From contig JBHHTZ010000001.1 of assembly GCA_046753605.1 (NCBI GenBank), forward strand, positions 1,244 to 65,243: a stretch of 64,000 nt of DNA. The letters run 5' to 3'. The translations under genes were made by a program, and so were the position numbers. Shown here piece by piece: positions 7,395-63,289 of the stretch (the stretch's first letter is position 1; each line of letters starts with the position of its first letter). Under the pieces are notes generated by a model that saw only the letters and a program-made list of their open reading frames with translations, searched no databases and was not told the origin of the DNA. Origin of the DNA: Anaerolineae bacterium (GTDB lineage Bacteria; Chloroflexota; Anaerolineae; Epilineales; JAANWY01).

Positions 7395-7408
7395 TTGCAC
7401 TATCGCAA
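7395..7408. promoter_or_regulatory. Palindrome TTGCACTATCGCAA between the divergent genes; candidate operator
   Basis: TTGC-N6-GCAA inverted repeat 23-36 nt upstream of the HTH gene ATG. Confidence 0.35.
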
Positions 7409-7430: not shown

Positions 7431-7631
7431 ATGCCCAATTTTCAGACGTGGTTTCGAGAGACGCGAGAGAAGAAGAAGCTCACGCAAACCCAGGCGGCCG
7501 AGCAGCTTCGGTTGACCTCCCCGACGATCAGCCGCTGGGAAACCGGCACCGAGCCCCGGGCCAATCATCTGCCTAGGATCTGCAGGTGGGCTCCGATCAA
7601 GGCTGACAAGCTCATGGAGCTGCTGGGGTAG
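7431..7631 (+). CDS. XRE-family helix-turn-helix transcriptional regulator (Cro/CI-like)
   Basis: LTQTQAAEQLRLTSPTISRWETG is a typical HTH_3 motif; ATG at 7431 preferred over the TTG at 7395. Confidence 0.7.
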   Translation: MPNFQTWFRETREKKKLTQTQAAEQLRLTSPTISRWETGTEPRANHLPRICRWAPIKADKLMELLG

Positions 7632-8236
7632 TGGGGGCCCACAAGAACAAGGAAGAGCGGACCCACCAGGAGCTGTATTGCCAGTGGTTGACGCCCCCCT
7701 CCGTCGCCGAGCAGTTCCTGGCCTGGTGCCGCCTCGGAGCTGAAGACGTCCTTCTCGAACCCGCGGCCGGCGAGGGCGCGCTCATCCCCGAGGATCACGC
7801 CCAGGTGATGGCCTTCGAGATTGACCCCGACCGCTGTGTGGAACTCAGGAACAACCGCCCGCTGGCCACGGTGGTCTGCGCCGATTTTTTGTCCGTCCCC
7901 GTGCCCGAGCGACCTGTGGCCGACGTGGCTATCCAGAATCCCCCATACATCGACGACGGCGAGGGGATCTTCATCGAGCGCGCGTTGCACTGGGCTCCGC
8001 GCGTGTGCGCGCTCATCCGCCTGGAAGCTCTACACGGCAAGGACCGCTACGCCCAGTGCTGGCAGCACGTGCAGCTTACACGCCTGGCCATTCTGGTGCG
8101 CCGGCCGCGCTACCTGGGCCCGTACGGGGCGCGCACCAAACACTCGCCGCAGTACAGCTACGCGGCGCTGGAGGCGGTGCCGGCCAACAGCCAGCAGGTC
8201 TGCCAGGTGGAGACAAGCTGGGTACATTGGAAGTAA
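7631..8236 (+). CDS. DNA methyltransferase (N6-adenine or N4-cytosine, NPPY type)
   Basis: Motif I LEPAAGEGAL followed by motif IV NPPY; small protein with no adjacent endonuclease, so probably an orphan phage methyltransferase. Confidence 0.7.
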   Translation: MGAHKNKEERTHQELYCQWLTPPSVAEQFLAWCRLGAEDVLLEPAAGEGALIPEDHAQVMAFEIDPDRCVELRNNRPLATVVCADFLSVPVPERPVADVAIQNPPYIDDGEGIFIERALHWAPRVCALIRLEALHGKDRYAQCWQHVQLTRLAILVRRPRYLGPYGARTKHSPQYSYAALEAVPANSQQVCQVETSWVHWK

Positions 8237-10220: not shown

Positions 10221-12458
10221 TTATGCTGCCTCCTTCCAGTCAACGCGGAACTCCGCGTTTTTATCGAAGTACACCGGCCAGCGCCCCTCGCGCGCCAGGT
10301 CGTACGGCTGCAACCGTCCATCCTTGTCGAATATGGCCTCGGCTTCCTTGCACCAGTGCTTCGAGATGGCCGGCTCGCACTTCACCGGGTAGTTGGGAAG
10401 CAACGTGTTGCCCTCCTCGACCATGACGTCTGCCATCTCGTAGGCCTGCTCGTGCGCCAGCTCGATGTCCACCTCGGCCAAGATCTCGTCGTGAATAAAG
10501 CCGACTGGACGCACGCCGTACAGCACGCTGCCCGGCACCCGGGTGTAGCACCGCTTCATGACGCCCCACATGCCCCGCTTGGACACATCCGCCCCCAGGC
10601 CCTGGAAGAAGGTGTTGCAGGCCTCGGTGAACTTGCAGCGGCCCCGTATCCGGCCGACGCGCAACTGGGCGAAGGTGCCGACGACACGAGCTATCGCCTC
10701 CGTCTCGGAGTCGCTGTCCAGCTCTTCCAGGTCTAGCTCCAGGTGCTGTCGAATCCACCTGAAGTAGTCGTCCCACTCCGGGTACTTCTGCAACCAGTCG
10801 GACTTGTACTGAGCAGCCTCTTCCAGAGTCAGCGTGACACCGTAACCGCGGGCAAAACCCACGATGCCCCGCTTGCCAAGGCCCCCCGGGGCCCCGAAGT
10901 TGAAAATCTTCGCCAACTGGCGAAAGAACTTGACCTCTTTATCGTGCTTTCTCTTGAGCGCGTCGTTGTACGCTATGCCCATGAGCGTGGCCCCGAAATC
11001 CAGATGCGGATCAAGGCCCTCGTTCATCGCGTCGCCCATTTTGGAATAGCCAACTAGATCCTTACACGCCTGCGCCCCCGTACACAGCTCCAACCCCGTA
11101 TAGTCATTGTCCACGAAGTACTTGCCCGGTCGGGAGACGAAGCACTCCCTGATGCCTATCCCAGGAGGAAAGAGCGGAACAGGCTTCTCCTCCCCTGGCG
11201 GGATCCACATGTACGACCGCTTGGGATTTTGGAACTGGAAGCCGTTAGTGACCGAGCGCGTTCGTTTTCCGTCGTCCGTCCGACTCTTGCTGCACGCGGT
11301 ACGCCCCGAGTCCACCAGGGTCGTATACCTGGGCTGGATGGGGGTGTTGCCTCCCTTTTCAAGATCCTCGATGTGCGTATACAGCACCGTATGTAGCTGC
11401 GAGCGCAAAGAGAACGCCATCAGCATCTCGTCGCCCGTCCTCCGGCAAGCGTCCTCGTCTATCGAGGCGTACTTTACTATTTCCTCTTCAGTGAACACCG
11501 TCTCGAAGGATATCTCCCCCCCGTCGTCCAGTCTTCCGTTCTCTCTCAAGTACTTGACGTATTTTTTGTACCCGGTATCGGTGAGCTTGATCGGCAGCTC
11601 TTGCTCCCGACACACGTCCACCATACGACGCTGGGCCGCCTTTATGTTCTTCGTCCAGCGCAAGTTACGCTGTATCTGCTCAAAACCGCGTACCATGCCG
11701 CCGTGTTGGGGTTTGACCAGCTCGTCGGATAGCTCCCAGTACTTCTCCTCGGCGTACTGCTGTAACTTCTTTATCTTCTCCTCGTCCGTCATGACCCCCC
11801 AGCACATCATGAACTGAAGAGCCAGGGCGGCCCTGGACTGGGCCGGGGAATCGAGCAGGTACTTGCGGTCTTCGCTGTCCCACTGATACTGGCCAACGTC
11901 CCGGGCTCCGATGGCGTCGTCAACAGCGTAGTGGGTCGCCGACGGCGGCCAGCGCTTCAAAGCTACGTTATGTAACTGCCTGTAGCGCAACCGCCAGATG
12001 TCCGATCCCTTTTTCTGTGCGCTGCGGTCGCGCTTGAGCAACCGACATTCCAGGCCGGCCAACGAGTAGCCAAACAAGGCCTGCATCATTTTGAATTTGC
12101 CCTTGGCTATGTCTATCAATCGCTGACTGAGGCCCACGTCTATGATCTTGTCGGCGTCGTACGCCTCGAAGACCTCCTCGAAGAGATCTGGCCACTGCGC
12201 CAGGCACACCGCCACGTCGTAGGCGACGTTCAGGCCGTAGGACACGGGCTCGCGCAACACCCACCGGAAGGCTTCCTTGGCCGTTCGCCCAGGTGGGGCA
12301 GCGTTACCGAATAACGTCAACGGCTCGTAGGCGTCGTTGACATGGTACAACCACACCCCGTCCCAGGCAGCGATGGACAAGCAGACCAGCTCGGGCGCGA
12401 GCTTGGCCGGTCGTATCAGCCACGTCTCGCAGTCCCAGCCTGGTCCTCTTAAAGTCAC
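10221..12458 (-). CDS. Family A DNA polymerase (Pol I-like) with 3'-5' exonuclease domain
   Basis: Exo I WDCETWL; motif A DYTGLELC; motif B RQLAKIFNFGAPGGLG; motif C FIHDEILAEV. Confidence 0.9.
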   Translation of the reverse strand: MTLRGPGWDCETWLIRPAKLAPELVCLSIAAWDGVWLYHVNDAYEPLTLFGNAAPPGRTAKEAFRWVLREPVSYGLNVAYDVAVCLAQWPDLFEEVFEAYDADKIIDVGLSQRLIDIAKGKFKMMQALFGYSLAGLECRLLKRDRSAQKKGSDIWRLRYRQLHNVALKRWPPSATHYAVDDAIGARDVGQYQWDSEDRKYLLDSPAQSRAALALQFMMCWGVMTDEEKIKKLQQYAEEKYWELSDELVKPQHGGMVRGFEQIQRNLRWTKNIKAAQRRMVDVCREQELPIKLTDTGYKKYVKYLRENGRLDDGGEISFETVFTEEEIVKYASIDEDACRRTGDEMLMAFSLRSQLHTVLYTHIEDLEKGGNTPIQPRYTTLVDSGRTACSKSRTDDGKRTRSVTNGFQFQNPKRSYMWIPPGEEKPVPLFPPGIGIRECFVSRPGKYFVDNDYTGLELCTGAQACKDLVGYSKMGDAMNEGLDPHLDFGATLMGIAYNDALKRKHDKEVKFFRQLAKIFNFGAPGGLGKRGIVGFARGYGVTLTLEEAAQYKSDWLQKYPEWDDYFRWIRQHLELDLEELDSDSETEAIARVVGTFAQLRVGRIRGRCKFTEACNTFFQGLGADVSKRGMWGVMKRCYTRVPGSVLYGVRPVGFIHDEILAEVDIELAHEQAYEMADVMVEEGNTLLPNYPVKCEPAISKHWCKEAEAIFDKDGRLQPYDLAREGRWPVYFDKNAEFRVDWKEAA

Positions 12459-12838
12459 CTACTAAGCTCCTGTAATGCTTGCTGGTGTAGCTCCTTGAAC
12501 CACTGGGCTCTCAACCAGACGAGCAAGTCGTCTATCGATAAGAACCCCGGGAGGTTGAGCCTGCGGGCCTCTTCCAGTTCCTCCATCGAGCCCTCCGAAT
12601 TCTCCCAGTCGCCGACGAACAACACAGCGTCGCTCCTGCGCAACAGCTCCAAGTCGCCTTCAATGACCGTAGTCTCGGGCACCGCCCCGAAGTAGAACCG
12701 CGTCATGGTGTGCGGCACCAGCGGCATTGCCCCCAGGTGCAGAACCTGCAGGCCGGCCTTCTCGGCAACCCGGATATTCTGCTCTCTGGCCCAGGAGTTT
12801 GGGGCACTATACGGCCCGGCGATGTAAATGATCTTCAT
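12455..12838 (-). CDS. Nucleoside 2-deoxyribosyltransferase-like / DUF4406 protein
   Basis: N-terminal MKIIYIAGPYS motif typical of the NDT/DNPH1-like fold; 4-nt overlap with PolA, 3 nt from the ThyA-like gene. Confidence 0.55.
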   Translation of the reverse strand: MKIIYIAGPYSAPNSWAREQNIRVAEKAGLQVLHLGAMPLVPHTMTRFYFGAVPETTVIEGDLELLRRSDAVLFVGDWENSEGSMEELEEARRLNLPGFLSIDDLLVWLRAQWFKELHQQALQELSR

Positions 12839-12841
12839 CTT

Positions 12842-13642
12842 CTATTCTTCTACCATGCAGCGGATCTTCGCGAGCTTCTCCGCGTACCCGTACAAGTGCA
12901 GGCCCTTGCTCTCGAGGACCATCTCGCCATCTTCGACACCTATCGCTTGAGCCATGTATTCCTTCAACACCTGAACTCCCGCCAGGTTTGCAGGCAGGCC
13001 AGACCACAAGTCCCAGGACCGGAAGTAAACGAAAAAATGCAACTTGTTGTCTTGGATGCGTGTGTCGATGTGCCTGAGACACGGCGGGTCTTTGAGGATC
13101 AGGTCGGTGGGCTCGGCGACCTGTAACACCATCTGGTTGTTGCGGTGACCGTGCTTCTTATAGGTGTCAATGATCCATTCTATCTGGTTCAAAAAGATGT
13201 CCTGATTCAACATCCTGTAAAGAACTTTGTCATCTACTCGACGTAAATCGACCATATTTTTGTTGCCCTTGGCCCGCCAAAACAGCTTGTCATCATCGAT
13301 GCGAGATCTGGTCAAACGCTCCCCGTACGTGTACGACTCGCCGGGTTCCTTGCGGTCGCTCATCACATACTCGACGTAGGAGCGGTCGTATCCCTCGCCG
13401 CCGAAGACGTACCCCTCATCTACAGGATTCGGAATACCCAGGTGCGGAGGGATGTCCGGCAACATGGGCCTGGTGCCCGGGTACTTTACGTGCCCGATGA
13501 AGTAGTCGTACTCCAAACGGGTCTGGCCCTCGAAAGAGCCCTTGTCGATGGTGAACTGCCGGCCGATCCTGAGTACGTCGGACACAGCCTGAAACCATAA
13601 ATCAGGGAGATCTCGCGCTTCTATCTTATGTATGTTCAACAT
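12842..13642 (-). CDS. Thymidylate-synthase-fold enzyme (ThyA-like; dUMP methylase or hydroxymethylase)
   Basis: DPPCLRH...HFFVYFRSWDLWSGLPANLAG aligns with ThyA PCH...QFYV...YQRS.D.FLGLPFNIASY including the catalytic Cys and the Asn of the uracil-specific PFN motif; N-terminal half highly divergent. Confidence 0.8.
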   Translation of the reverse strand: MLNIHKIEARDLPDLWFQAVSDVLRIGRQFTIDKGSFEGQTRLEYDYFIGHVKYPGTRPMLPDIPPHLGIPNPVDEGYVFGGEGYDRSYVEYVMSDRKEPGESYTYGERLTRSRIDDDKLFWRAKGNKNMVDLRRVDDKVLYRMLNQDIFLNQIEWIIDTYKKHGHRNNQMVLQVAEPTDLILKDPPCLRHIDTRIQDNKLHFFVYFRSWDLWSGLPANLAGVQVLKEYMAQAIGVEDGEMVLESKGLHLYGYAEKLAKIRCMVEE

Positions 13643-14049
13643 TATCCCTCCACCACCTTGAGGTGTCTCTTCTTTTTCTTGCCCTTCGCCGACTTCGGCC
13701 GGCGTAACTCGGCCAACCTGCGCCCCTCTCGCATGTTCAACGGAGTGTCCAGCGCAACCATCATCCGGTACGCGATGTCCTGCACGGCCTCGCCGGTTTC
13801 AAAAGACAACCTCTCTAGCCACTTGACCAGTGACATCTGCTGCTTGGCGCTGTTGCAGTTTGGGCAGCACGTGACGAGGTCGCTCGCCTCGTTGCCCGCC
13901 CTGAAGTACACGTGGTCGAGCTGCAGGCCGTAGCCCATCTCGTCAATGGGGAACACCGACCTGCACCAGATGCAGTCGAACCCGTCTCGATGGTAGATGG
14001 CCAGGCGCTTGGGGAGCCTGATCCAGTCCATTCCTTTGTTGTGCGGCAC
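13642..14049 (-). CDS. HNH endonuclease
   Basis: LDHV...N...CCPNCNSAK HNH signature with Cys4; GTG start preceded by AGGGAGG. Confidence 0.7.
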   Translation of the reverse strand: MPHNKGMDWIRLPKRLAIYHRDGFDCIWCRSVFPIDEMGYGLQLDHVYFRAGNEASDLVTCCPNCNSAKQQMSLVKWLERLSFETGEAVQDIAYRMMVALDTPLNMREGRRLAELRRPKSAKGKKKKRHLKVVEG

Positions 14050-14062
14050 CTCGGACCTCCCT

Positions 14063-14080
14063 TTGACGTTTATACGTCAA
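14063..14080. promoter_or_regulatory. Palindrome TTGACGTTTATACGTCAA just upstream of the RBS of the HNH/ThyA/PolA operon
   Basis: 7-nt perfect arms TTGACGT/ACGTCAA; same arms recur at 39684 and 63272. Confidence 0.5.
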
Positions 14081-14190
14081 GTAAGGATGAGCCCCGAAAT
14101 ACTGCTATGCCGCTCGGGGCCACACGGCGGTATTCGGCTGTCGGTCGTAGGAGCGCTGGGGTTAAGCGCCGAAACCGAAAGCCGAAACTC

Positions 14191-14673
14191 TCAGTCCTGC
14201 CGCACTTCCCAGATATGCTTGGTAAAGGGGTTTCCGGACTGGGTGGTGATGCTCACGCACTCCAGGTTCATCACGACCCCTTCAAGCGCATTGTACTGTA
14301 CCACCAGCTCGTCGACTATCCGGGACAGGGGCAGACGCACCCCTTGGGGATTGTTCTTGAACCAGTACTCCTCGATCAGATCGTTGACGTTGTCGAGCGT
14401 GGGGTCCACACCGCTGACGGCCGCGATGAACCCCTTGATATTCGGCAACGACATCGGGCCGCCCATCTTGATTACCTGGCTCTTCTCAACGCCCACCTGG
14501 ATCTCGGGGTTGTTGCTGGCCAACACGTCCATCTCGATTACCAGGAAATTATCGCCCTTCTGTCCTTTGACCTTCTTCACCGCCTTGAGCTTCACACGGT
14601 ACTTTCCAGGATGAAGCCACGTTCCCGTTTTTTGTACAGTTGCGTCTCCGATTTCATCGAACCATCCTGACAT
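14191..14673 (-). CDS. Hypothetical protein
   Basis: 160-aa ORF downstream of the SNF2 helicase, co-oriented. Confidence 0.5.
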   Translation of the reverse strand: MSGWFDEIGDATVQKTGTWLHPGKYRVKLKAVKKVKGQKGDNFLVIEMDVLASNNPEIQVGVEKSQVIKMGGPMSLPNIKGFIAAVSGVDPTLDNVNDLIEEYWFKNNPQGVRLPLSRIVDELVVQYNALEGVVMNLECVSITTQSGNPFTKHIWEVRQD

Positions 14674-17212: not shown

Positions 17213-18715
17213 TCACTTCTTCGCTGCCATGGTGGCAAACGCCGTGTCGGCCAGCTTCACCGCCTGGTTGGCGATCTTCACCTCATAGCGGTTGTCCTCG
17301 ACCGAGTACACGCGGGCCTCAATCAGGGACCGCATTGCGGCCTTGACCATCTCGGCGCGGGTGACGCCACCCTTTTCCTTGCCTGCTGTCACGGCCGGCC
17401 CGTCAGGATCGACGCCCTTGTCCTTCTCGGGTGGGTTCACCTGGGTCGGCTGGGTGGCCGCAGCGGGCTGAGCCGGCGGCTGCTGCTCCTGAGACTGCGC
17501 GGGCGGGGGCTGACCGCCCTCCCCCTTGACGAGCTTGAAAGACAAAGGGTCTGGATCGGTCGTCCCCTGCTGCCCCTGAGGCGGCGCGGAGTCCACGGCC
17601 GCGAGCCCGGGTGGCGGCGAGGGAGGTGAAGCGGGCGGCGAAGCGGCCGGCGACTCGGCCGCGGGCTGCTCTCCTTGGGGCGGTGTCGGGGGTATCGGCG
17701 CGGCTGCCGGAGCAGCAGCTGTGGCCGTCGTTCCCGAGGCGTTATTTCCGCCCGCGTTTGCCGAATCGATGTTCCTTTGGATCTTCTCGGACAGGCTGAG
17801 ATTTTTTGACTGTTCGTTAGCTTCCATTGCTTCTATCCTTTCACTTAGAGTCAACGTACACGGATTGTCTTGATAATGACAACCCCCGTATGCGCCACAT
17901 GCGGCGACGTTATACGGCAGGTCCCTTGCTTTGAACTTTCTATACCGATACGTCAGTATCTGAACGCCTACTTTTTCCATCTCGATGAAACGCGCATCTA
18001 GTTCCGCTAGCGTCATTACACCGTAATGCTCGGGACGCACGTTATCTGGACACGGCGGCGGCTGTACGCTCTCGTCATGGATCACGTTCAACTGCACCTT
18101 ACGGCTGCGAGGGGTTTTGGGGTTGGCCAGGTAGTAGACCCAGTTCAGCTCGATTCGTTCCAGTGTCTGCCCCCAGATAAGGCCGCTGCGACGTGCTTCG
18201 ACCTCCGCAGCCTTGCCGTAAATTACTGCCTGGGGATCTCGCCGCAGGAACTGCGGGGTCTTCAACCAGTTGAAGGAGCTGGTCGTTTTGTGGTCCCAGA
18301 CCGTCTGCACGCTCTCGTGAAACGATCCCCGCAGATCTATCCGACCGTGGAACACCACCCGACCGGTGTCGAAAACGAAATCGTGCTCGGTCGCGTGCGT
18401 TCCCGGTCGCGGCAAAAACTTGAGGCCAGGCGAGACGATCGCACCGATGGGGGTCGAAAGATCGATGGAACGGCCCTCGCCTTGCCACAGCTCCAACACC
18501 TCGTGCGCTTCCAGACCCGTCTGGGCGTACTTGTTAGGCGGCCGGGACAACCCGTCGAGCTTCTCGAAGCCCCACTTCCTCTCGCACAGCAGAATCGTGT
18601 CTACTTGAGAGGGACTTACACGGTGAGCGTTCCGAAACGCTTTGTTAAATGGCTCTGTCAAACCCCTGCGACTCCTACAGAGAGCGACTATGCACTTGCG
18701 TACGCGCAAAGTCAA
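17213..18715 (-). CDS. Cas4/RecB-like PD-(D/E)XK nuclease with C-terminal Cys cluster, low-complexity linker and extra C-terminal domain
   Basis: IDL...VWDHKTT (D...DxK), QAVIYGK (QxxxY), CGAYGGCHYQDNPC Fe-S-type cysteines; about 120 aa of Pro/Ala/Gln-rich linker. Confidence 0.6.
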   Translation of the reverse strand: MTLRVRKCIVALCRSRRGLTEPFNKAFRNAHRVSPSQVDTILLCERKWGFEKLDGLSRPPNKYAQTGLEAHEVLELWQGEGRSIDLSTPIGAIVSPGLKFLPRPGTHATEHDFVFDTGRVVFHGRIDLRGSFHESVQTVWDHKTTSSFNWLKTPQFLRRDPQAVIYGKAAEVEARRSGLIWGQTLERIELNWVYYLANPKTPRSRKVQLNVIHDESVQPPPCPDNVRPEHYGVMTLAELDARFIEMEKVGVQILTYRYRKFKARDLPYNVAACGAYGGCHYQDNPCTLTLSERIEAMEANEQSKNLSLSEKIQRNIDSANAGGNNASGTTATAAAPAAAPIPPTPPQGEQPAAESPAASPPASPPSPPPGLAAVDSAPPQGQQGTTDPDPLSFKLVKGEGGQPPPAQSQEQQPPAQPAAATQPTQVNPPEKDKGVDPDGPAVTAGKEKGGVTRAEMVKAAMRSLIEARVYSVEDNRYEVKIANQAVKLADTAFATMAAKK

Positions 18716-18875: not shown

Positions 18876-21350
18876 ATGCTGATCTGGTCGGGATGTCATA
18901 ACGTAGCTCACTCCGCTTTCGTTGACTTCCAAGGTTCGCACCCTGACTTCGATACTTTCGTCAAAGCAGTACTCGACCCCAAGACGTTCAAACCCGCAAA
19001 AGAAAAAGACCAGTTGCCTTTGTTTATCCCTGCTGAGTTCGTGCAGGGTAAGCTGGTACGGCGCAGCAACAACAACGTGCTGTCTGTGCAGATGGGCGTG
19101 CTCGACCTCGACCACGGCTCAGTCGACGAACAGCGCCTAACCCTGGACATCGTCAAGAGCTACGGCCACGTCGTATATACGAGCTTCAGTCACGACCCGA
19201 ACGGTCAGCACAAACGTCGGACCATGGTGAAGTTCTCTCGGTCTGTCAACGTGACCGAGTGGCGACAATTCTTCCCCCGGATGCTGTTGCACTTTAAAGC
19301 AACAGAAACAGCTGATAAGAAGTGCGCCGACCCTTGTCACATGTATTACGTGCCCGGAGGGGATTTTTCTAACTACGAAGTCTTCGGTGACGACGGACCA
19401 CCGGTTGATGTCGATGCGATCCTGGCCATGTCGCTGCCCGAGGGTATGGCCGAAAAACCCATCGAGGACTACGACGACATCTTGCCCGAGGATCAGCGCG
19501 GCACCATCGGAGACGGTCTGCGCGAAATATGGAACGGCAAACTGGTCAACCTGATAGACGAGATCGAGAACCGCCCCTATCCAGGCAGCATCTACGACCT
19601 CAAGGTGCATCAGGTCTTCGGCCTGGCGCGCGGCGTGCCTCACATCATGTCTGCCGAGCGACTGCGCAACAGCGTCGTGATCGCGCTGGACCGTCGCTAC
19701 CGAACGGCCCAGACCGACGAAGACACCGAAATGGTGCCGGTCTACCAGGAAAAATCGATCCAGCAGGTGGAGAAAGCCGTCGCTGACGGTATGCAGCAGC
19801 CCTGGTGGCCGCCGAAGAGCAACGAGATCATCTCCCGGCCGCTGACCGAGCTGGGCCTGGCCGAGCGCCTGGTGGACCAGCACGGCCAGAACATCCGCTG
19901 GGAGCCCACCTGGAAAAACTGGCTGGGCTGGAACAATAAGTACTGGAACCTGGAAGCCGGCCTCGAAGTCGTACGCAACAAACTAGAAAGTACAATACGC
20001 TCGATTCCGCAAGAAACTCACGCGCTTTCCGCCGATTACCTTGAGGCAAAGAAGCACTTCATTGCAGTGGCCGCCGACGAGAAGGTATCTGATGCCGTAC
20101 GAACCGACGCCGAAGTGAAATACGAGCGTCTGAAAAAACAGATAGAGGAGATAAACAAGTTTGCCCTAAAGTGCGAGACAGGGTCGAAATTTTCAAACGG
20201 GGTGACGCTGGCCACACACAAACCCGAAATACTCACCGACTATCGGGTGTTTGACCAAAATCCCTGGTTAGTGAATTTCAATAACGGAACATTAGATCTC
20301 CGCACCGGAGATTTCGGCCCCCACAAACGCGAGGACTTCCTCACCCGCACGGTCCCCTACAACTACGACCCCGACGCCAAGTGCCCGCGCTTCGACGCCT
20401 TCATGCGGGACTTCATGCAGGAGAACGAGCGCATGATAGCCTTCCTGTGGCGCGTGATGGGCTACACCGCGTGCGGGGTGACCGACGAACAGAAGATATT
20501 CGTACTGCACGGCGACGGAGCGAACGGTAAGAGCACGTTGCTGAACCTGCTGGTAGATATCTTCGGAGAGGGTAGCAGCGGTTACGGCATCGCCGCCAAC
20601 AGCGAGAACCTGCTGTCGACCCGCAACAGCAGCAAGCACGAGACGTGGCGCATGTCCCTGGCCGGCACACGGATCGTCAGCTGCCAGGAGGTCGACGAGG
20701 GGCGCTCGTTCGCCGAGTCCCTGCTCAAGGAGCTGACTGGATCGGACAAGATCACCGGCCGGAAGCTGTATCAAAACGAGTGGAGCTACAAGCCCCAGTT
20801 CACGCTATGGCTCGCGGTCAACCACCTACCGCATGTGCGAGGGACCGATGAGGGCATCTGGCGGCGTCTGTGCGTTATCGAGTGCCCGGCCAACTTCCGC
20901 AACCGCCCCGACCGAGACATGCCGCGTCGGCTACTGCTCGAAGCCCCGGGCATCTGGACGCGCCTCGCGCGCGAAGCTCGTGCCTGGATCAGAGAACGAC
21001 TGACCCTGCCGCGCGAGGTGGTCGTATCCAACACCATGTACCGGCACGAGCAAGACCCCCTGCGCGACTTCGTCGAGCGGTGGTGCATCATAGATGCCGA
21101 GGCTGTCGAAGCACGGCCGACGATCTGGGCCGCCTACGAGGAGTACTGCGCCGCGGAGAAGATCAAGACCTTCCACGAGCGGAAGAGGTTCTACGCTGCA
21201 CTGGAAAAACAATTCGCGATCAAGAAAATCCACGGTCAACGATTTTTTGCCGGCCTGCGCGTCAAGACTCAGAAAGAGCGCATTGAGTCCACCCCGCGCG
21301 CTGTTTTGCAACGCGCCCTGGCTGCGCGCGAGGAAGAGCCACTGAACTAG
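18876..21350 (+). CDS. Primase-helicase (D5/P4-family NTPase with N-terminal primase-like region)
   Basis: Walker A VLHGDGANGKSTLLNLL, Walker B IVSCQEVDEG, P4 primase C-terminal domain organisation. Confidence 0.85.
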   Translation: MLIWSGCHNVAHSAFVDFQGSHPDFDTFVKAVLDPKTFKPAKEKDQLPLFIPAEFVQGKLVRRSNNNVLSVQMGVLDLDHGSVDEQRLTLDIVKSYGHVVYTSFSHDPNGQHKRRTMVKFSRSVNVTEWRQFFPRMLLHFKATETADKKCADPCHMYYVPGGDFSNYEVFGDDGPPVDVDAILAMSLPEGMAEKPIEDYDDILPEDQRGTIGDGLREIWNGKLVNLIDEIENRPYPGSIYDLKVHQVFGLARGVPHIMSAERLRNSVVIALDRRYRTAQTDEDTEMVPVYQEKSIQQVEKAVADGMQQPWWPPKSNEIISRPLTELGLAERLVDQHGQNIRWEPTWKNWLGWNNKYWNLEAGLEVVRNKLESTIRSIPQETHALSADYLEAKKHFIAVAADEKVSDAVRTDAEVKYERLKKQIEEINKFALKCETGSKFSNGVTLATHKPEILTDYRVFDQNPWLVNFNNGTLDLRTGDFGPHKREDFLTRTVPYNYDPDAKCPRFDAFMRDFMQENERMIAFLWRVMGYTACGVTDEQKIFVLHGDGANGKSTLLNLLVDIFGEGSSGYGIAANSENLLSTRNSSKHETWRMSLAGTRIVSCQEVDEGRSFAESLLKELTGSDKITGRKLYQNEWSYKPQFTLWLAVNHLPHVRGTDEGIWRRLCVIECPANFRNRPDRDMPRRLLLEAPGIWTRLAREARAWIRERLTLPREVVVSNTMYRHEQDPLRDFVERWCIIDAEAVEARPTIWAAYEEYCAAEKIKTFHERKRFYAALEKQFAIKKIHGQRFFAGLRVKTQKERIESTPRAVLQRALAAREEEPLN

Positions 21351-21359
21351 GAGGTAGCC

Positions 21360-22184
21360 ATGGGACAGTACGTCTGGAAGCAAAAAGGACTGGAAGTAGA
21401 AGATCTACAAAACGCCCTTGTTGAAAAAGGCTATACCTTGCCCCGGTGGGGTGCCGATGGTGTGCTCGGCAATGAGACATGGCGCAGGGTGGAGCAGTTC
21501 GCAGGTGTCGACTCGTTCCCCACCTCTCGCTCGCTACCCGAGGACGTTACCGACTCCATCCTGACAACAGACGAAGAACCAAAACCCGCACCACCCCCAG
21601 ACTGGGTGCGCGTCGATGGCGACCCCAACGACGTAAAGGGGTACAGGAGCTGGCAGCAGATCGACACCATCGTGCTTCACCAGACCGGTGTGTGGATGTC
21701 CGACACTCCCGAGAGGTTCCGCACGCTCAACGCCCACCTGGGCATTCTGGCCACGCACCCGACCCCCATCGTGCAGGTACAGGACTTCACGGCCTACATG
21801 TGGCACGCCAACGAGCTGAACCGCTGCAGCATCGGCATCGAGATCAACGGCCGCTTCCCCGGTCTGGCCGGCCGGTACGACGCCGAACTACACACCGCGG
21901 GTGGTCCCTCGGCCGGCCAGATACAGAACACCCGCCATACCATTCTGCATCTCATGCAGCTGGCCATCTGCCATCGAGGGGAGATCAAGTACATCCTGCC
22001 GCACCGGGTCAGCAACGACCAGCGCCAGGGCGACCCGGGGGAGATTGCCTGGCGGGAGATTGGCCTGTGGGCGCAGCACGAGCTTGGTCTATGCGACCGC
22101 GGGCCTGGCTGGTCTATCGGTGACGGGAGGCCTATCCCGGGGCCGTGGGACAGCCGGGTGGCTTACGCGGGATATCCCTACTAG
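21360..22184 (+). CDS. Endolysin: peptidoglycan-binding domain plus N-acetylmuramoyl-L-alanine amidase (Amidase_2/PGRP)
   Basis: N-terminal PG_binding_1-like GADGVLGNETWRRVEQFAG; C-terminal HQTG...NRCSIGIEINGRF amidase_2 pattern. Confidence 0.8.
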   Translation: MGQYVWKQKGLEVEDLQNALVEKGYTLPRWGADGVLGNETWRRVEQFAGVDSFPTSRSLPEDVTDSILTTDEEPKPAPPPDWVRVDGDPNDVKGYRSWQQIDTIVLHQTGVWMSDTPERFRTLNAHLGILATHPTPIVQVQDFTAYMWHANELNRCSIGIEINGRFPGLAGRYDAELHTAGGPSAGQIQNTRHTILHLMQLAICHRGEIKYILPHRVSNDQRQGDPGEIAWREIGLWAQHELGLCDRGPGWSIGDGRPIPGPWDSRVAYAGYPY

Positions 22185-22223
22185 GGCGCAACCTGCCCAT
22201 TTTTCAAGGATAATTTCGAAGTC

Positions 22224-22340
22224 TTGCCCCTGGCCGGCTGCTCGGGGTATACTACCTGGGCTCGTGGGACTCCCCCTGCGAGTGTTCGCGGCAGCTTCGC
22301 CGCGTGACATCGGGGGCCGAGATACCCCCAGAGGTAAACC
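22224..22340 (+). promoter_or_regulatory. Promoter (TTGCCC-18-TATACT) plus about 85-nt structured leader, copy A
   Basis: Duplicated at 23905..24022; two hairpins (22287..22304, 22312..22329) kept by compensatory changes between copies. Confidence 0.6.
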
Positions 22341-23276
22341 ATGCCAGAGAACCTGCCACTGCAGAAACGGACAGGCTTCAATCGAGGCGAACAGTCCGTA
22401 AACCTGAACCGTATCCGGCACCTGGGGCAGCCTGCCATCAAAGCCGGCCCCGGCGACACCGTCATCCTGAAAAACGCCCCCGTCATCCCTGGGAGAGGGC
22501 AAAAAACCCCCAGAACACAAATAATGAACCTCACAGTCGGCGGTTACGTGTTCAACCGCACCGGGAACAACATCGACTACGATTTCATCCTAGTAGACCC
22601 CGACGGAAAAGAATTCGCCTACCACGCAGAAGACCTGGGAGTGGGTTCGTGGCCCCTGCCCAATGATGAGAACCACCCCATCCCTTCCCTGGGATACCTC
22701 GCATATTACGCCAGAAGCAATACGGGAATCCCGCTGAGTCTGTTGCTGCCCGGCTGGTCCCTCGTTCTTCGAGTCAAATCGGGGAACCCTCTCAGCGGCA
22801 GAGGCCTCATCATATGGGCCTGGGCGAACGACATGTCGAACAACCTACAAGCACTCATGGTGCCTGTGACCAAAACCGAAATCGAACTGGGACCGGACCC
22901 CGGTCGCGCCTGGCAGCTTTGCGGGAGCAACCTGCTACAAGGCCTTCCCCTCACTCCGACGTACCTCAACTTCGACAGTGTCGTCAGAACCGTCGAGCAG
23001 GGAGCAGAAATATATCGTCTCGCGGGCGAAGACATCCAGGTCAACAACTTGAGGCCCGACATCGCTGTGGACCCCCGTACAGATGCCAATACAGGAGTCG
23101 AGGCCGGTTTCTTGACCGAAATAGGCGACCAGAAAAAGCCGAATGGGTTGGTTCTGTCCTGCCCTGATAAAATAAAGGTCAAGGCAAAAGAGAACCAGAC
23201 CAGCGGCCCGCTGTACCTGCTCGTCCCCTTCGCTGAGTTCGATCTGCCGGCCGACATGCAGGTGGAGGAGGAGTAG
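22341..23276 (+). CDS. Hypothetical protein, paralog A of the MPEN(L/I)PLQ family
   Basis: 311 aa; N-terminus and GYVFNRTGNNIDYDFILVDPDGKE segment shared with 24023..24436. Confidence 0.6.
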   Translation: MPENLPLQKRTGFNRGEQSVNLNRIRHLGQPAIKAGPGDTVILKNAPVIPGRGQKTPRTQIMNLTVGGYVFNRTGNNIDYDFILVDPDGKEFAYHAEDLGVGSWPLPNDENHPIPSLGYLAYYARSNTGIPLSLLLPGWSLVLRVKSGNPLSGRGLIIWAWANDMSNNLQALMVPVTKTEIELGPDPGRAWQLCGSNLLQGLPLTPTYLNFDSVVRTVEQGAEIYRLAGEDIQVNNLRPDIAVDPRTDANTGVEAGFLTEIGDQKKPNGLVLSCPDKIKVKAKENQTSGPLYLLVPFAEFDLPADMQVEEE

Positions 23277-23896: not shown

Positions 23897-23904
23897 GCTG
23901 TCCT

Positions 23905-24022
23905 CTTGCCCATGGCCGGCCGCCTGGGTTATCCTACCTGGGCTCGTGGGACTTCCCCTGCGGGTGCTCGCGGGAGCTTCCCCGCGTGTCGGCGAGGGCC
24001 GAGACACCCTCGGAGGTAAATC
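23905..24022 (+). promoter_or_regulatory. Promoter (TTGCCC-18-TATCCT) plus structured leader, copy B
   Basis: Paralogous to 22224..22340; hairpins 23968..23985 and 23993..24010. Confidence 0.6.
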
Positions 24023-24436
24023 ATGCCAGAGAACATCCCGCTTCAGCAACGCGCTGGGCGAAACATCGGAACCGAGGCGCTGCCGCCTTTCATCAACGGC
24101 GCGGCAATGCCCGAGATCGTGGTCAACCCCTCGGGGGTCACCGTGGTCATGGTGGGCCAGGAGGGCGTCGTGCGCACCCCGTGCGTTCGCGCCAACAGTC
24201 TCCCCGATGAACTGGACGGACCCAACTGGGGCTTCGTCATCAACCAGACCGACAACGATCTGAACATCGACATCCTCTTCGTGGACAACGAGAACAACGA
24301 GATGAAACTCGGAGACATCGTTGTGCTCGCGCAAAGTCTCGAAGGGTTAATACTGGAATACGTCTTCGCCGCCGGGGCCTTCCTGGGTCTGTGCCCGGGT
24401 GAGAAGATCATCCTGCGCAGCTCCATCGCCGAATAG
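24023..24436 (+). CDS. Hypothetical protein, paralog B of the MPEN(L/I)PLQ family
   Basis: 137 aa; shares N-terminus and GFVINQTDNDLNIDILFVDNENNE with paralog A. Confidence 0.55.
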   Translation: MPENIPLQQRAGRNIGTEALPPFINGAAMPEIVVNPSGVTVVMVGQEGVVRTPCVRANSLPDELDGPNWGFVINQTDNDLNIDILFVDNENNEMKLGDIVVLAQSLEGLILEYVFAAGAFLGLCPGEKIILRSSIAE

Positions 24437-24957: not shown

Positions 24958-25746
24958 TCACTCCTGTGAATGTGCAACAACCCCGTCAGGTTTCACCTGG
25001 CGGGGTTTTCTTTTTGCCCAGATGAATGTAACGAACGAGCGGCCGTAGCTCTTGCGTTTGGTTACAACACGCATCGCTCTCACCAAACCCATACCGTACC
25101 CCGGGCTCCTGTTCTCTGCAGTATGATCTATCGTCGCCCGGACCAGAAAAGCCTCTAAAGGTTTGGTTGTCTCCTTCACGTACTTCAGCACCACCTCATG
25201 TGCCATCCCTGGGCCCGTGCGTGCAATAATGCTCTCAAACCTCAACGACCTATAACCCCCTTTGGCCATGTAACGCTTCTCATTCTTCACGGCCTGTTCG
25301 ATCAACCTGCACAACAGCTCGTGCCCAGGAGTAGATCGAATAAAACGAATTTCCAAAGCCAACGTGGGGGCTCCTCCCATCATCCCAAAAAGCGGCCAAT
25401 CGCACGTGGCTCCGGGTAGAATCTCCCCTTCAAGATCTGGTAACACGTCGATGTCCACGTACGCGCCGCCGAGCTGGTACAAGACGAAGTAACGGAAGAT
25501 GTCGGCGCAGCTCGCGTGGCTGCCGTAGTGCCTCTCGTACTTGAAGACCTCCTCGATGTCCGAGCCGGTTATAAGATCATCCACCAGGCGCAGCTCAACA
25601 CCAGGCACCGGAGGTTGCTCGATCTGGCCACTGTGCCAGAGCACGCAATGCCAGCCGAGCTTCTGCCACGCAAGCAGGTACTTCTCTCGCGACTCGGCCC
25701 ACGGTTCGATGAACCAACAAAGATGTAGATTAGAATCCCATGTCAT
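24958..25746 (-). CDS. Glycosyltransferase, GT32-like (Gly_transf_sug, DXD type)
   Basis: ADIFRYFVLYQLGGAYVDIDV matches the D..RY..LY..GG.Y.D.D signature. Confidence 0.65.
   Translation of the reverse strand: MTWDSNLHLCWFIEPWAESREKYLLAWQKLGWHCVLWHSGQIEQPPVPGVELRLVDDLITGSDIEEVFKYERHYGSHASCADIFRYFVLYQLGGAYVDIDVLPDLEGEILPGATCDWPLFGMMGGAPTLALEIRFIRSTPGHELLCRLIEQAVKNEKRYMAKGGYRSLRFESIIARTGPGMAHEVVLKYVKETTKPLEAFLVRATIDHTAENRSPGYGMGLVRAMRVVTKRKSYGRSFVTFIWAKRKPRQVKPDGVVAHSQE
24981..25015 (+). terminator. Rho-independent terminator for the plus-strand paralog genes
   Basis: 10-bp stem CCCCGTCAGG/CCTGGCGGGG with loop TTTCA followed by TTTTCTTTTT. Confidence 0.6.
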
Positions 25747-25831
25747 TTATTTTCTCTACAAAGCTAGTCTGTCTCTCTATGTCGACGGTGTGTGAGTACC
25801 GATATTGTCCTCACGTTTTTCTCCGTACTGG

Positions 25832-26650
25832 CTAAAAGCCCATATCGTTGATTTTTTCTACGAAGCTCGTTTGCCTTTTACATCGAGGACACCGCACCTT
25901 GTCATCTGCCGCAGCCTCGAACGGTCCACATTTTTGACATCTGTATGTTGCCGAAATCTCACTATAGAAAGTGACGTGGAGCGGATCCTTCACCTTACGT
26001 AAACAGTGTAGCTCTTTGGATTGAAACTGAATGGCGATGTACTCTTCCGGCCCGAACCGCGAGGTTGGGATCTTCTCCCAGTCCCTGGTGAATAACAACG
26101 AGTGTCTCACCCAGTAGTACGTGCCGGCAAAGTGTTTGCCGTATTGGCCCTTGCACAAAAAACAACCCGCTGCTGCGACGGGCTTTTTAACGAAAAAACT
26201 TGTTGCTTGTTTAGGAATAAAAACGGCCTCAATCCTCTCGGGGTTCGAGAGGCACTCGTCGTACATCCTGTTGCGCCACTGCCGCACCGACGTCTGTTCC
26301 AGTTGACTACACTCTACAACCGCCTTGCGCACACCTTTGGTGTGCGCGTAGAAGGTTATCTCGTCGTCCCTGGTAGACTTCAAACTGCTCAAGCCTTCAA
26401 GGAACCCGGCCAGCTCGTGCAGCTTCGGGTCGTTCGGTATTAGACGAAACTCGACGTCGCCGTGTTCTTCGAGCGGGGCAAAACGAGTTTTCACGAAGTT
26501 GGGATTGGCCATGTCTCGGCCGGTCTTTATGTTGATTAGCAACCGGTTGTTGAACGCCGAGCCGTACTTGCAGAGCCAGCGGATGTTATCCATCCACACC
26601 TCTTCAGCATCGACATGCGGACAGCAATTATAAAATAAATTTCGGAGCAT
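25832..26650 (-). CDS. Hypothetical protein within the glycan-modification cluster (possible glycosyltransferase)
   Basis: 272-aa ORF between the GT32-like gene and the methyltransferase, co-oriented; C-terminal Cys4. Confidence 0.45.
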   Translation of the reverse strand: MLRNLFYNCCPHVDAEEVWMDNIRWLCKYGSAFNNRLLINIKTGRDMANPNFVKTRFAPLEEHGDVEFRLIPNDPKLHELAGFLEGLSSLKSTRDDEITFYAHTKGVRKAVVECSQLEQTSVRQWRNRMYDECLSNPERIEAVFIPKQATSFFVKKPVAAAGCFLCKGQYGKHFAGTYYWVRHSLLFTRDWEKIPTSRFGPEEYIAIQFQSKELHCLRKVKDPLHVTFYSEISATYRCQKCGPFEAAADDKVRCPRCKRQTSFVEKINDMGF

Positions 26651-26653
26651 ATA

Positions 26654-39098: not shown

Positions 39099-39572
39099 AT
39101 GCACCTCCACTGCCACCTCGGGCGCATCGCGCCCATCGAAGAAGATCCGTCCGCAAACCTCAAGGGAGCCCAGAACGCCCGTAAGTGGGTCTTCGACCTG
39201 ACGCTTCCGTTGAACGAGATCTCGTCATTTTCCATCCAGCTGGTCGCCTGGCGAACCGGCCGCGAGGCGAAGGACGGCCACGGGCGGCCAGTCTTGCGCG
39301 GCAAGCTCATGCCGCACGCGATACCGCTCAACCGGGCGGCCGCACGCTCTACCATCTATTTTCCGGCCGCAGAGGATGGAAAGCTGATGGTGGTGGTGGA
39401 GCCGGGATTGCCGCCCAAGGGTAAGCCCGAGCCCGAGCCCGCACCCCCTCCTCCAGAAAAACCCGAGGAAGAGGCCGGAGAAGAAGCCGAGGAGAAGCCA
39501 CCCGCGGTTGAAAAGCCGCCGGAAATTCGGCTCCGGCTGGTGGTGGACGCCCCGAGCACGCTTGCCTCCTAG
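39099..39572 (+). CDS. Hypothetical protein with acidic Pro/Glu-rich C-terminus
   Basis: ATG at 39099 with RBS taggagaga; PEPEPAPPPPEKPEEEAGEEAEEKPP tail. Confidence 0.5.
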   Translation: MHLHCHLGRIAPIEEDPSANLKGAQNARKWVFDLTLPLNEISSFSIQLVAWRTGREAKDGHGRPVLRGKLMPHAIPLNRAAARSTIYFPAAEDGKLMVVVEPGLPPKGKPEPEPAPPPPEKPEEEAGEEAEEKPPAVEKPPEIRLRLVVDAPSTLAS

Positions 39573-39683: not shown

Positions 39684-39701
39684 TTGACGTATAATCGTCA
39701 A
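39684..39701. promoter_or_regulatory. Palindrome TTGACGTATAATCGTCAA upstream of gene 39739
   Basis: TTGACG/CGTCAA arms with TATAAT centre; third copy of the motif seen at 14063 and 63272. Confidence 0.5.
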
Positions 39702-39738
39702 GACGCTCTGGGCGTTTGTCTGATAGAGGGGTAGAAAC

Positions 39739-40659
39739 ATGAACCCGACCCGTCTCATGTACTCGAAGGCCAACCAGGCCTTTGTTTTCACGTTCGGAGA
39801 TCAGTTGTTACGCATAGGAGACGACAACCCCATGTTCTACCGGCGCAAGAGCGAGGCCATCAGGGCCGCGCTCCGGCAGGGGTTTCTCGTCAACGAGAAG
39901 ACGGGCTTCGTCACGTCCGTCGAGGGCCGGCGGCCGCCGGGAGGGCTCGGCCGGCAGCCGAGGGGCAGTGGCTTGAGCGCGCTGGAAGGGCGCGCGACGC
40001 TGCGTACCCCGGTAGGCACCAGGGTCCGGTTCGTGCCGAACCCGGCGAGCTTCCAGCTCTACACCCGTCCGCCCGCGCGCGGCGAGGAGGGAGAGGTCAC
40101 CACGACGATGTTCCCAGGTGGTCGGCGTCGCAGTGCCATGCCGGGACCCGGCGGAGGGCTTCTGTACGTCCGCTGGGATCGAGTCGGGGTGCAGGGAGTT
40201 TCTCCCGTCGATGTCGAGATCGTTTACCGACCGCGGCGCGGCGCAACGGGGGTGAGCGCGCTCGAAGGAGTGAGCAAGGCCGACAAGCTGCGTAACCTGG
40301 ACGACCTCACGCGCGGATACATCCGCGCTGCTCTCTGGTCTACGAACGACGAGTCCGACGAGAGCGGAGGGTTGCCGCTCGACGAGAACTACGGTCCCGA
40401 AGATCTCACCGTAGAGGCGCTCGACAAGATGATTCAAGACTGCGAGAAATTCCAGCAGGACAACGCCGAGTTGTTGGCCCAGGCCGGCGACCCGGCACGC
40501 AACGGCCACGACTTCTGGTTGACCCGGAACGGGCACGGTACAGAGTTTTGGGACAGGGAGGAATACCCCGAGGCAGTCGGCGAGGGGCTCTCCGATGCAG
40601 CGCGCAGGTACGGTGAGGTGGACCTGTACGTGAGCCGGGGCAAGATCTACCAGAGCTAG
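39739..40659 (+). CDS. Hypothetical protein
   Basis: 306-aa ORF with RBS agaggggtagaaacATG. Confidence 0.55.
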   Translation: MNPTRLMYSKANQAFVFTFGDQLLRIGDDNPMFYRRKSEAIRAALRQGFLVNEKTGFVTSVEGRRPPGGLGRQPRGSGLSALEGRATLRTPVGTRVRFVPNPASFQLYTRPPARGEEGEVTTTMFPGGRRRSAMPGPGGGLLYVRWDRVGVQGVSPVDVEIVYRPRRGATGVSALEGVSKADKLRNLDDLTRGYIRAALWSTNDESDESGGLPLDENYGPEDLTVEALDKMIQDCEKFQQDNAELLAQAGDPARNGHDFWLTRNGHGTEFWDREEYPEAVGEGLSDAARRYGEVDLYVSRGKIYQS

Positions 40660-47944: not shown

Positions 47945-48367
47945 GTGGGATTACTCGGCGTTGACCTCAACAAGGATCCAGGCACCGGGAACCTGAATCT
48001 TAGGGCGTGCTTCGCTGCTATCGTGGGTCCGAGTCGAGTGGCCCACGGTCGGCGTTCGGTCGTGCGGGTTCAGGCTGGCCGGCCTGTTCTCATCCTGGGT
48101 AACAAGACCCAGGAAGAGACGATGTACTTCGAGGTCTGGCTACCTCAGAGTAGCATCCTGGCGCTGCCTGGCGGGGGCGCGTTCCTCGGGCTGATGTCCG
48201 GTGAGACGGGCGGGCAGACTGCGGTGCAGACGCTGTTCAACGCGACGCAGCGGTACTCGGGTGTGTTGCTTCCGAGCGAGCAGGTATTCGCCGAAGCCGT
48301 GACGGACGCCCTCGGCGGCGCTCTGGCGGCCCAGGTGCCGGTGGTGGTTTCCTCGGTGGTGTTCTGA
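47945..48367 (+). CDS. Hypothetical protein
   Basis: 140-aa ORF (non-ATG start in the track). Confidence 0.4.
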   Translation: MGLLGVDLNKDPGTGNLNLRACFAAIVGPSRVAHGRRSVVRVQAGRPVLILGNKTQEETMYFEVWLPQSSILALPGGGAFLGLMSGETGGQTAVQTLFNATQRYSGVLLPSEQVFAEAVTDALGGALAAQVPVVVSSVVF

Positions 48368-62541: not shown

Positions 62542-63033
62542 TTATTCCTTGGCGGCCATTTCTAGAGCGTTGGTCAGGGCGTTGGGGTACGTCGGCAGTT
62601 CCAGGCACAGCTCGATACGGTACGGCCGTTCGTCTAGCTCGAACTCGACACGGCCGTAGGCCTTCTTCAGGTGCTTGCGGCCGCAGTGACTGATCACCCA
62701 GAAGGGAGTCACTCGCGCGTTGAAGACCTTGCCGATCTGCCGGATGGCCTTGAGGCAGGTCCACTGCACCTCGGTCAGCTCGTCGGCGGGCTCGACGACT
62801 TCGAAGCGCACCGGGTCACCGGGCTGGGCCATGCGGTGCATGATGGCTATCTCGCGCACCTCGTTCTCGGTCAGGCGCTTTCGCTTGAACCAGCCGCCGT
62901 ATTCCTTCCAGATGGCCTTGTAGATGATGGTGTCGGCTTCTTTGTCGGGTATCGCTACACCAGCAGCCAGGCGTTCTTTCTGGTTGCGAGTGCCGAATCG
63001 GCGGACGTATTCGAAAAATGCTGGGCTACTCAT
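62542..63033 (-). CDS. Hypothetical protein
   Basis: 163-aa ORF with RBS on the minus strand. Confidence 0.5.
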   Translation of the reverse strand: MSSPAFFEYVRRFGTRNQKERLAAGVAIPDKEADTIIYKAIWKEYGGWFKRKRLTENEVREIAIMHRMAQPGDPVRFEVVEPADELTEVQWTCLKAIRQIGKVFNARVTPFWVISHCGRKHLKKAYGRVEFELDERPYRIELCLELPTYPNALTNALEMAAKE

Positions 63034-63262
63034 CTGTGTTCTCCTCTTTCAAGACGACGGTTTCGTGCATGAACGAGCGCACGGTCAGGCACACCTTGCC
63101 GATACGCGCCAGGCGGCGCAGCCGGTTGTACTGTTTGCGCAGGCGCACGCGCTTGCGCCGGGTCATTTTTCCGGTGGGCTCTCGGGGGATTGCCCGAGGC
63201 GAAAGCGGCATCGAGAACGTCAGGCCGTTGTTGGAGGGCAGGTTCGGGTTCTTGATCAGCAT
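63026..63262 (-). CDS. Small basic hypothetical protein
   Basis: 78-aa ORF preceded on the minus strand by AAGGA and the TTGACGT-N4-ACGTCAA palindrome. Confidence 0.35.
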   Translation of the reverse strand: MLIKNPNLPSNNGLTFSMPLSPRAIPREPTGKMTRRKRVRLRKQYNRLRRLARIGKVCLTVRSFMHETVVLKEENTDE

Positions 63263-63271
63263 GGAGTTCCT

Positions 63272-63289
63272 TTTGACGTGTAAACGTCA
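63272..63289. promoter_or_regulatory. Palindrome TTGACGTGTAAACGTCAA upstream of gene 63026..63262
   Basis: Same 7-nt arms as 14063..14080. Confidence 0.5.

Follow-up and report, generated by a model that had tools for sequence, protein, structure and literature searches.

A dispersed 18-bp palindrome close to gene starts in an uncultured temperate phage, a candidate operator of a small regulon

The phage and the sites of the palindrome

The stretch of DNA analysed here (64,000 nucleotides; its full length is hereafter termed the window) belongs to an uncultured temperate phage with a contig of about 70–74 kb, almost all of whose proteins lack annotation. It corresponds to positions 1088-65087 of a 69.5-kb Logan contig, and a protein identical to one of the phage is deposited under an Anaerolineae MAG, on a 73.8-kb contig. 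The element encodes an integrase of the tyrosine recombinase type, PolA, a D5-type primase, helicases and an amidase. All 84 proteins were scanned against Pfam and PHROG, and about 45 were scanned again at relaxed thresholds; the negative statements on protein families made below refer to the best 25 of 60 Pfam and the best 25 of 84 PHROG families. Within that scope no terminase, portal or major capsid protein was found; the genes for replication, integration and lysis are clear, and a 1203-aa protein (48367-51978) displays endolysin-like segments. No GenBank phage matched 12–16 kb of the window in blastn searches or the 590-aa protein in tblastn searches, and PolA retrieved only remote GenBank phage matches of at most 35% identity. 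In IMG/VR, a single remote locus was recovered with PolA and none with the 306-aa or the 78-aa protein; against GTDB genomes PolA gave only an irrelevant match in Saccharibacteria and hence no host assignment. Metagenomic relatives of PolA and of the 306-aa protein are numerous and form the basis of the comparisons below. The phage also carries an island of lower GC content (about 55%; 24958-29435, minus strand) with five genes, including a methyltransferase-like gene, which is bordered by long gaps of 473–1061 bp and none of whose proteins was matched in the related loci compared, these being parts of the relatives' genomes.

Three intergenic gaps in the window, each separating co-directional genes and none of them a divergent promoter region, contain the only exact matches to TTGACG-N6-CGTCAA (Table 1). 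At site 1 the gap lies between a 160-aa gene and an HNH gene that opens the block HNH / ThyA-like / DUF7768 / PolA, at site 2 between a 157-aa gene and the 306-aa gene, and at site 3 between the 78-aa gene and a 445-aa gene that continues beyond the end of the window. In every case the palindrome occupies the end of the gap nearest to the downstream gene, 0–24 nt 5' of the Shine-Dalgarno (SD) sequence of that gene, which is on the minus strand at sites 1 and 3 and on the plus strand at site 2.

Table 1. Coordinates of the palindromes, the adjoining genes and the orthologous copies (prefixed positions refer to related loci)
Feature	Position	Strand	Letters	Context
Site 1 palindrome	14063-14080		plus strand TTGACGTTTATACGTCAA; gene sense TTGACGT-ATAA-ACGTCAA	3' end of 141-bp gap
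160-aa gene	14191-14673			bounds gap of site 1
HNH gene, SD and start	14047-14062	-	A-GGGAGG-TCCGAG-GTG	SD 14056-14061; GTG 14047-14049
HNH / ThyA-like / DUF7768 / PolA block	10221-14049	-		opened by HNH gene
Site 2 palindrome	39684-39701		plus strand TTGACGTATAATCGTCAA; TTGACG-TATAAT-CGTCAA	166-bp gap; 6-nt arms
157-aa gene	39099-39572			bounds gap of site 2
306-aa gene	39739-40659	+		bounds gap of site 2
306-aa gene, SD and start	39726-39741	+	GAGGGG, ATG	GAGGGG 39726-39731; ATG 39739-39741
Site 3 palindrome	63273-63290		plus strand TTGACGTGTAAACGTCAA; gene sense TTGACGT-TTAC-ACGTCAA	60-bp gap
78-aa gene with SD	63026-63272	-	AAGGAA-ctcc-ATG (gene sense)	AAGGAA 63267-63272 abuts palindrome; ATG 63260-63262
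Site 1 orthologue	L012:1807		TTGACGTATAAACGTCAA	
Site 1 orthologue	L124:8102		TTGACGTTTGAACGTCAA	
Site 1 orthologue	L125:1179		TTGATGTGTAAACGTCAA	
Site 2 orthologue	L126:9926			directly abuts GGAGG
Site 2 orthologue	L127:9948			
Site 2 orthologue	L128:6049			directly abuts GGAGG

The three copies observed compare with about 0.003 expected from base composition, and none of 100 dinucleotide-preserving shuffles of the window contains the motif. The hexamers TTGACG and CGTCAA themselves, counted 23 and 31 times, are about twofold over-represented, and the expectation calculated from these counts is still just about 0.01 copies. With the intergenic share of the window being about 10.5%, based on the gene calls of the source contig, the chance that all three copies would fall between genes is about 0.001. 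Allowing 1–3 mismatches yielded no credible additional site in the window, the one poor match being inside a coding region. Neither an Rfam family match for the whole window nor, in a literature search with the half-site strings, anything other than primer noise was obtained.

These counts uphold the sequence-only reading in its view that the recurrence is non-random, and every window copy is intergenic and gene-proximal. It was also right that the element is not a −35/−10 pair, for TTGACG and the central hexamer are adjacent. Other details had to be amended: the third site, which had been placed at 63272-63289, is at 63273-63290; the shared 7-nt arms are present at sites 1 and 3, whereas at site 2 the arms are 6 nt and the seventh pair is a T/T mismatch; and the palindrome abuts the ribosome-binding site only where 1 nt (site 1) or none (site 3) separates the two, and not at site 2, where GAGGGG begins 24 nt past it.

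Conservation in related phages

Orthologous copies are present at site 1 in three loci of phages with 80–82% PolA identity and at site 2 in three loci of phages with 73–79% identity in the 306-aa protein. A fourth locus is represented by a copy, TTGACGT-CTAA-ACGTCAA, at L010:2814 on a sister-strain contig that reaches past the window end, where it lies 28 nt 5' of a SprT-like gene. Across the 10 copies (four loci in four phages, the window phage and three relatives) 138 of the 140 arm bases are identical, whereas the sequence flanking the palindromes is scrambled and largely unalignable between relatives. This much stronger conservation of the motif than of its flanks sustains the notion of a functional element put forward from the sequence alone, and suggests that a single trans-acting factor serves a small regulon. 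All copies end 0–28 nt before the SD sequence or start codon of the next gene, and in 5 of the 10 the distance to the SD sequence is 0–2 nt. The centre is n-TA-n, and hence itself symmetric, in nine copies, with its positions 1 and 4 varying freely, and the base just 3' of the palindrome is likewise a purine in nine.

No match to the palindrome within one mismatch was detected at loci with a PolA identity of 74% or less. In L013 the order of the 160-aa and HNH genes is kept with a gap of 39 bp and no palindrome, while in L129 (63% identity) the palindrome is again missing and the 306-aa orthologue overlaps its upstream gene. Because the more distant relatives are devoid of the palindrome, including those with the same order of genes, it is, as judged from these alignments, a selected, clade-specific addition. 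The 73 occurrences of the pattern in IMG/VR are background: 63 are inside open reading frames, only 4 have the TA centre, and they are single copies, each in a different unrelated contig. A remote IMG/VR relative, L001, possesses a perfect 19-bp palindrome of its own, TTCGGAAACAGTTTCCGAA, twice within 1 kb (20480-20498 and 21384-21402), so that another set of palindromes exists within this broad group of phages.

The relatives also clarify the architecture of site 1. The start codon of the HNH gene can be fixed because the N-terminal residues of its product, PHN(K/V)GMDWIRL, are conserved in L012 and L124. Furthermore, in L012 (1844-2152) and L125 (1214-1528) a gene for an RRM_1-domain protein of 102–104 aa is inserted between the palindrome and the HNH gene, and the palindrome thus marks the 5' boundary of the block rather than belonging to the HNH gene. 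An RRM gene is missing from the window phage, which eliminates the RRM protein as a universal binder of the palindrome.

A separate conserved hairpin, CCGTGTGGCCCCGAGCGGC(A/C)TAG...TTCGGGGC, is situated 3' of the 160-aa gene (about 14093-14135 in the window, minus strand), with counterparts at L012:1770-1800, L124:8060-8095, L125:1135-1170 and L015:9885-9930, the last of these in a locus without the palindrome. The 3' strand of the window hairpin can pair instead with the SD sequence and start of the HNH gene (z = −3.5), and these alternative pairings suggest competing structures. On inspection of the orthologues by eye, the extended SD-sequestering fold was not clearly conserved and was set aside.

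A DNA operator and its alternatives

We tentatively favour the reading in which TTGACGT-nTAn-ACGTCAA, with four copies per genome and three in the window, would be a double-stranded DNA operator, that is, a repressive operator or roadblock for a putative dimeric protein. A dimer of one lineage-specific putative protein would occupy each copy, with one subunit per 7-bp half-site. This reading is ranked first mainly because of the invariant arms, the variable, unoriented and AT-rich centre, and the 11-bp spacing. With regard to the arms, five of the seven stem pairs never vary over the 10 copies and none has changed on both sides; one pair shows a one-sided C to T change (TTGATGT in L125), which leaves a G-U pair in the sense RNA, and the loop-closing pair is lost once. 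The lack of compensatory change and the invariance of five pairs indicate that the sequence itself is selected, and not just its pairing; known hairpin-binding proteins, for their part, read loops and bulges and tolerate covariation in stems. With regard to the centre, the orthologous site-2 copies have GTAA in L126 and L127 and its reverse complement, TTAC, in L128, so that the centre can face either way with respect to the gene, as would be expected of an uncontacted AT-rich spacer and not of a protein-read RNA loop. Finally, the 7-N4-7 layout places the half-site centres 11 bp apart, about one helical turn, which is a textbook feature of the operators of helix-turn-helix (HTH) dimers. Of the two options that the sequence-only reading had left side by side, a dimeric DNA regulator is thus favoured by the invariant arms, the lack of covariation, the n-TA-n centre and the 7-N4-7 layout, and a translational operator hairpin is less favoured.

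The probable direction of control comes from geometry. At five copies the dyad centre is 19.5–23.5 nt from the start codon, which excludes activation. A σ70-type promoter was rejected since no −10 element is found 16–18 bp downstream of TTGACG in either direction; a scan for consensus promoters returned nothing at sites 1 and 3 and one weak match at site 2, where the centre TATAAT is accompanied by a weak −35 at 18 bp, and this match is not conserved in the orthologues. Clear σ70-like promoters do occur elsewhere in the window, for example near 22.2 kb (TTGCCC-N17-TATACT) and near 18.8 kb (TTGACG-N17-TAATCC). The geometry also disposed of a MerR-type promoter with a 19–20-bp spacer, a class II or upstream-activator site, an ECF-type CGTC −10 with an upstream GAAC, and a leaderless start. 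With neither activation nor a fitting σ70-type promoter, a bound protein could act only negatively, whether by occluding a non-canonical start site at the 3' edge of the palindrome or by blocking RNA polymerase arriving from the upstream genes. The enrichment, placement, selective conservation and symmetry of the palindrome are observed; from these we infer recognition at the level of DNA, a repressive direction and the existence of a binding protein, such that one switch would govern four blocks: HNH/ThyA-like/deoxyribosyltransferase-like/PolA; the 306-aa gene and those following it; the 78/163/50-aa genes; and, past the window end, a block with the SprT-like gene. The genes downstream of the palindromes would accordingly be co-regulated, as had been proposed from the sequence.

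Some observations weigh against a DNA operator. No cognate DNA-binding protein emerged from the Pfam and PHROG scans, the sole HTH protein matching another palindrome (see below), and no σ70-type promoter consistently overlaps the sites. The abutment of the SD sequence at 0–2 nt is not needed for a DNA roadblock and would be expected rather of a promoter or of an operator in RNA. The sole pair-changing arm substitution away from the loop-closing pair, that of L125, also keeps a G-U pair.

The last two points lead to an RNA hairpin operator, in which a 7-bp stem with a tetraloop 5' of the SD sequence would be bound by a phage RNA-binding protein that represses or times translation, with T4 RegA, gp43 and the MS2 coat protein as precedents; in a variant, the hairpin-bound protein would load onto RNA polymerase as an antiterminator in the manner of λ N and nut. 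We consider an RNA operator a serious rival, though a less likely one. The copies lie between co-directional genes and are therefore probably transcribed, half of them are at 0–2 nt from the SD sequence, the hairpin is present in every predicted fold, and the L125 transition is of the kind that preserves pairing in the sense strand. But the invariant stem and variable loop are the reverse of what is seen with known hairpin-binding proteins, there are no compensatory changes in 10 copies, and the loops AUAA, GUAA, UUAC, CUAA and UUGA belong to different structural classes, with reverse-complementary loops at orthologous sites. Moreover, a conserved boxA-like flank is lacking, and the site-1 region is the only folded region more stable than shuffled controls, the folds of the other sites being no more stable than these. 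An RRM-domain gene follows site 1 directly in two relatives, but the window phage is without it.

Another potential reader of such a hairpin is encoded directly after site 3. The 78-aa protein carries a conserved arginine-rich core, KMTRRKRVRLRKQYNRLRRLARIGK, and in its AlphaFold model a basic helix (residues 35-54) is the sole confident part, accompanied by a weak hairpin and no recognisable fold. The succession of a site and a gene for a protein with a highly conserved arginine-rich helix, which speaks for an RNA-level reading, recalls nutL followed by N, and the near-identical small hairpins in transcribed intergenic regions, one of them directly 5' of a small arginine-rich gene, are comparable to λ nut. 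In λ, boxB combines a stem of 5 bp with a conserved GNRA-like pentaloop, lies beside boxA and is bound by the arginine-rich N protein; here, in contrast, it is the loop that varies and the stem that is invariant, there is no boxA-like flank, and there are four sites as against one per early operon in λ. The candidacy of the 78-aa protein as binder of the palindrome is speculative, and that it would read a transcript or extruded hairpin, as part of an N/nut-like system or of a translational operator of a new family, seems unlikely to us.

The sites could alternatively be phage-specific promoters, wherein the 18-mer and the purine that follows it would be read by a phage polymerase, sigma factor or co-factor, possibly in an N4-style hairpin form with starts just 3' of the palindrome and very short leaders beginning at the SD sequence. 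A few identical 18-mers per genome just 5' of SD sequences that head gene blocks, the following purine in 9 of 10 copies, the TATAAT centre of site 2 with its weak −35, and the emergence of the motif together with a new intergenic gap in the clade could all be accommodated in this way. Nevertheless, we judge a promoter decidedly unlikely. A perfect dyad is directionless; the centre fails the critical positions of a −10 element, which call for A at −11 and T at −7, position 2 being A, G, T or C and position 6 being A in 9 of 10 copies; and there is no consistent −35 element. No RNA polymerase or sigma factor was found among the best 25 of 60 Pfam and of 84 PHROG families, and the DxDGD motif is absent. 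N4 promoters resemble the present sites in being few, identical and hairpin-forming, with conserved stems just 5' of genes. They differ in that their stem of 5–7 bp carries a loop of 3 nt instead of 4 nt, in that they cluster at one genome end whereas these sites are dispersed, and in that they need a giant virion RNA polymerase, a polymerase not being found here within the scope just given.

A further alternative envisages dispersed sites for partition or global regulation, as with ParB/KorB or N15 sopC, or recombination cores, any effect on expression being secondary. It draws on four identical palindromes spread over about 70 kb of a temperate element with a tyrosine recombinase, and on arms of 6–7 bp around a centre of 4–6 bp, which are superficially like recombinase core sites. 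The OB sites of RK2, bound by KorB, and N15 sopC-like repeats are similarly identical palindromes scattered over a mobile genome and exert global negative control over several operons; OB sites are of 13 bp and variable in position relative to promoters, and OB and sopC-like sites are bound by ParB-family proteins. However, neither ParA nor ParB is among the best 25 of 60 Pfam and best 25 of 84 PHROG families, a scope in which weak matches are possible, and the 285-aa protein differs from the ParB-like gene of L013. Such sites also have no need of a ribosome-binding site beside them, essential modules would be inverted or lost if the copies recombined, and the arms are shorter than those typical of recombinase cores. 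Partition or recombination is hence a very improbable primary function.

We give as little credence to an element acting through structure only, be it a stabiliser of mRNA 5' ends, a processing site, a terminator devoid of a U-tract or a hairpin that dampens translation. A stable 7-bp hairpin is indeed predicted at each site beside the SD sequence, but compensatory changes would then be expected, whereas the sequence is identical at four paralogous loci in four phages, and no U-tract follows the hairpin. An intrinsic terminator, which would be a GC-rich hairpin ahead of a U-tract, was rejected: the hairpin is followed by the A/G-rich SD sequence, and a terminator scan found none at the sites.

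Candidate regulators, known systems and significance

If the palindrome is a DNA operator, its cognate protein is not apparent in the phage. Neither a second HTH protein nor a sigma factor or RNA polymerase was detected by Pfam or PHROG (best 25 of 60 and of 84 families), a search for HTH paralogues found none, and the remaining proteins yielded no informative match to any family. The HTH protein at 7431-7631, which the sequence-only reading had nominated as regulator, is a poor candidate: its own upstream palindrome differs (TTGCG-N4-CGCAA), and its recognition region (SPTISRWE.G) is nearly unchanged in relatives without the TTGACGT palindrome. The binder of the latter may be a host protein.

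The palindrome upstream of the HTH gene belongs to a second family, TTGC(A/G)-N4-CGCAA, with members in two divergent promoter regions: at 7395-7408, between a 96-aa gene and the HTH_3 gene, and at 18696-18709, a perfect copy between the PDDEXK nuclease and primase genes. TTGCG-N4-CGCAA is conserved in relatives whether or not they carry the TTGACGT palindrome, and is probably the operator of the 66-aa HTH_3 protein. Immediately after the HTH_3 gene comes a gene whose 201-aa product is N6-adenine methyltransferase-like and contains an NPPY motif (PHROG 799; both genes within 7431-8236, plus strand), an arrangement resembling a controller-protein/methylase pair. In addition, the plus strand contains two copies, about 80% identical, of a unit of some 130 nt (22215-22345 and 23897-24030). 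It comprises a promoter-like TCTTGCCC-N17-TATaCT and a GC-rich leader of about 95 nt that ends at an SD sequence and ATG, shows apparent compensatory changes (GGGGG..CCCCC versus GAGGG..CCCTC), and precedes a 311-aa gene at 22341 and an uncalled ORF near 24025; the leader has no match in Rfam.

Among known systems, two bear on the preferred reading, that of a DNA operator. The stoperators of mycobacteriophage L5 and other Cluster A phages are reportedly sites of the gp71 repressor. They are thought to silence downstream genes in a temperate phage by blocking elongating polymerase, and they are asymmetric, of 13 bp and fixed orientation, number about 20–30 per genome and share their sequence with the early-promoter operator. 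All four sites described here are likewise repeated sites in short co-directional gaps, off promoters and near gene starts. Unlike stoperators, they comprise a perfect 18-bp dyad in only four copies, none of which is at a divergent promoter region. The operators of the GntR/HutC family are said to have the core GT-n-TA-n-AC, and the inner 8 bp conform to it in 8 of the 10 copies, whereas that consensus does not include the outer TTGAC/GTCAA arms. The phage proteome yielded no GntR domain within the scope given above, and this match of letters is only a lead.

Taken together, the palindrome is a genuine, strongly selected regulatory element that probably defines a small regulon in a phage lineage not described before, and it belongs to a familiar kind of element rather than to a new one. 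Dispersed operator-like palindromes are common in phages, and for this reason the general view of phage regulation is unchanged; the control logic is real, yet fairly ordinary for phages. To our knowledge, no phage regulatory circuit has been described for the Anaerolineae (Chloroflexota), with which the phage lineage is binned. In this setting the two palindrome families offer a first sketch of the regulatory units of the genome, the 18-bp duplex or hairpin provides a concrete bait for finding the regulator, and the gain of the palindrome in one clade illustrates, on a small scale, how regulatory connections are grafted onto a gene order that is itself conserved.
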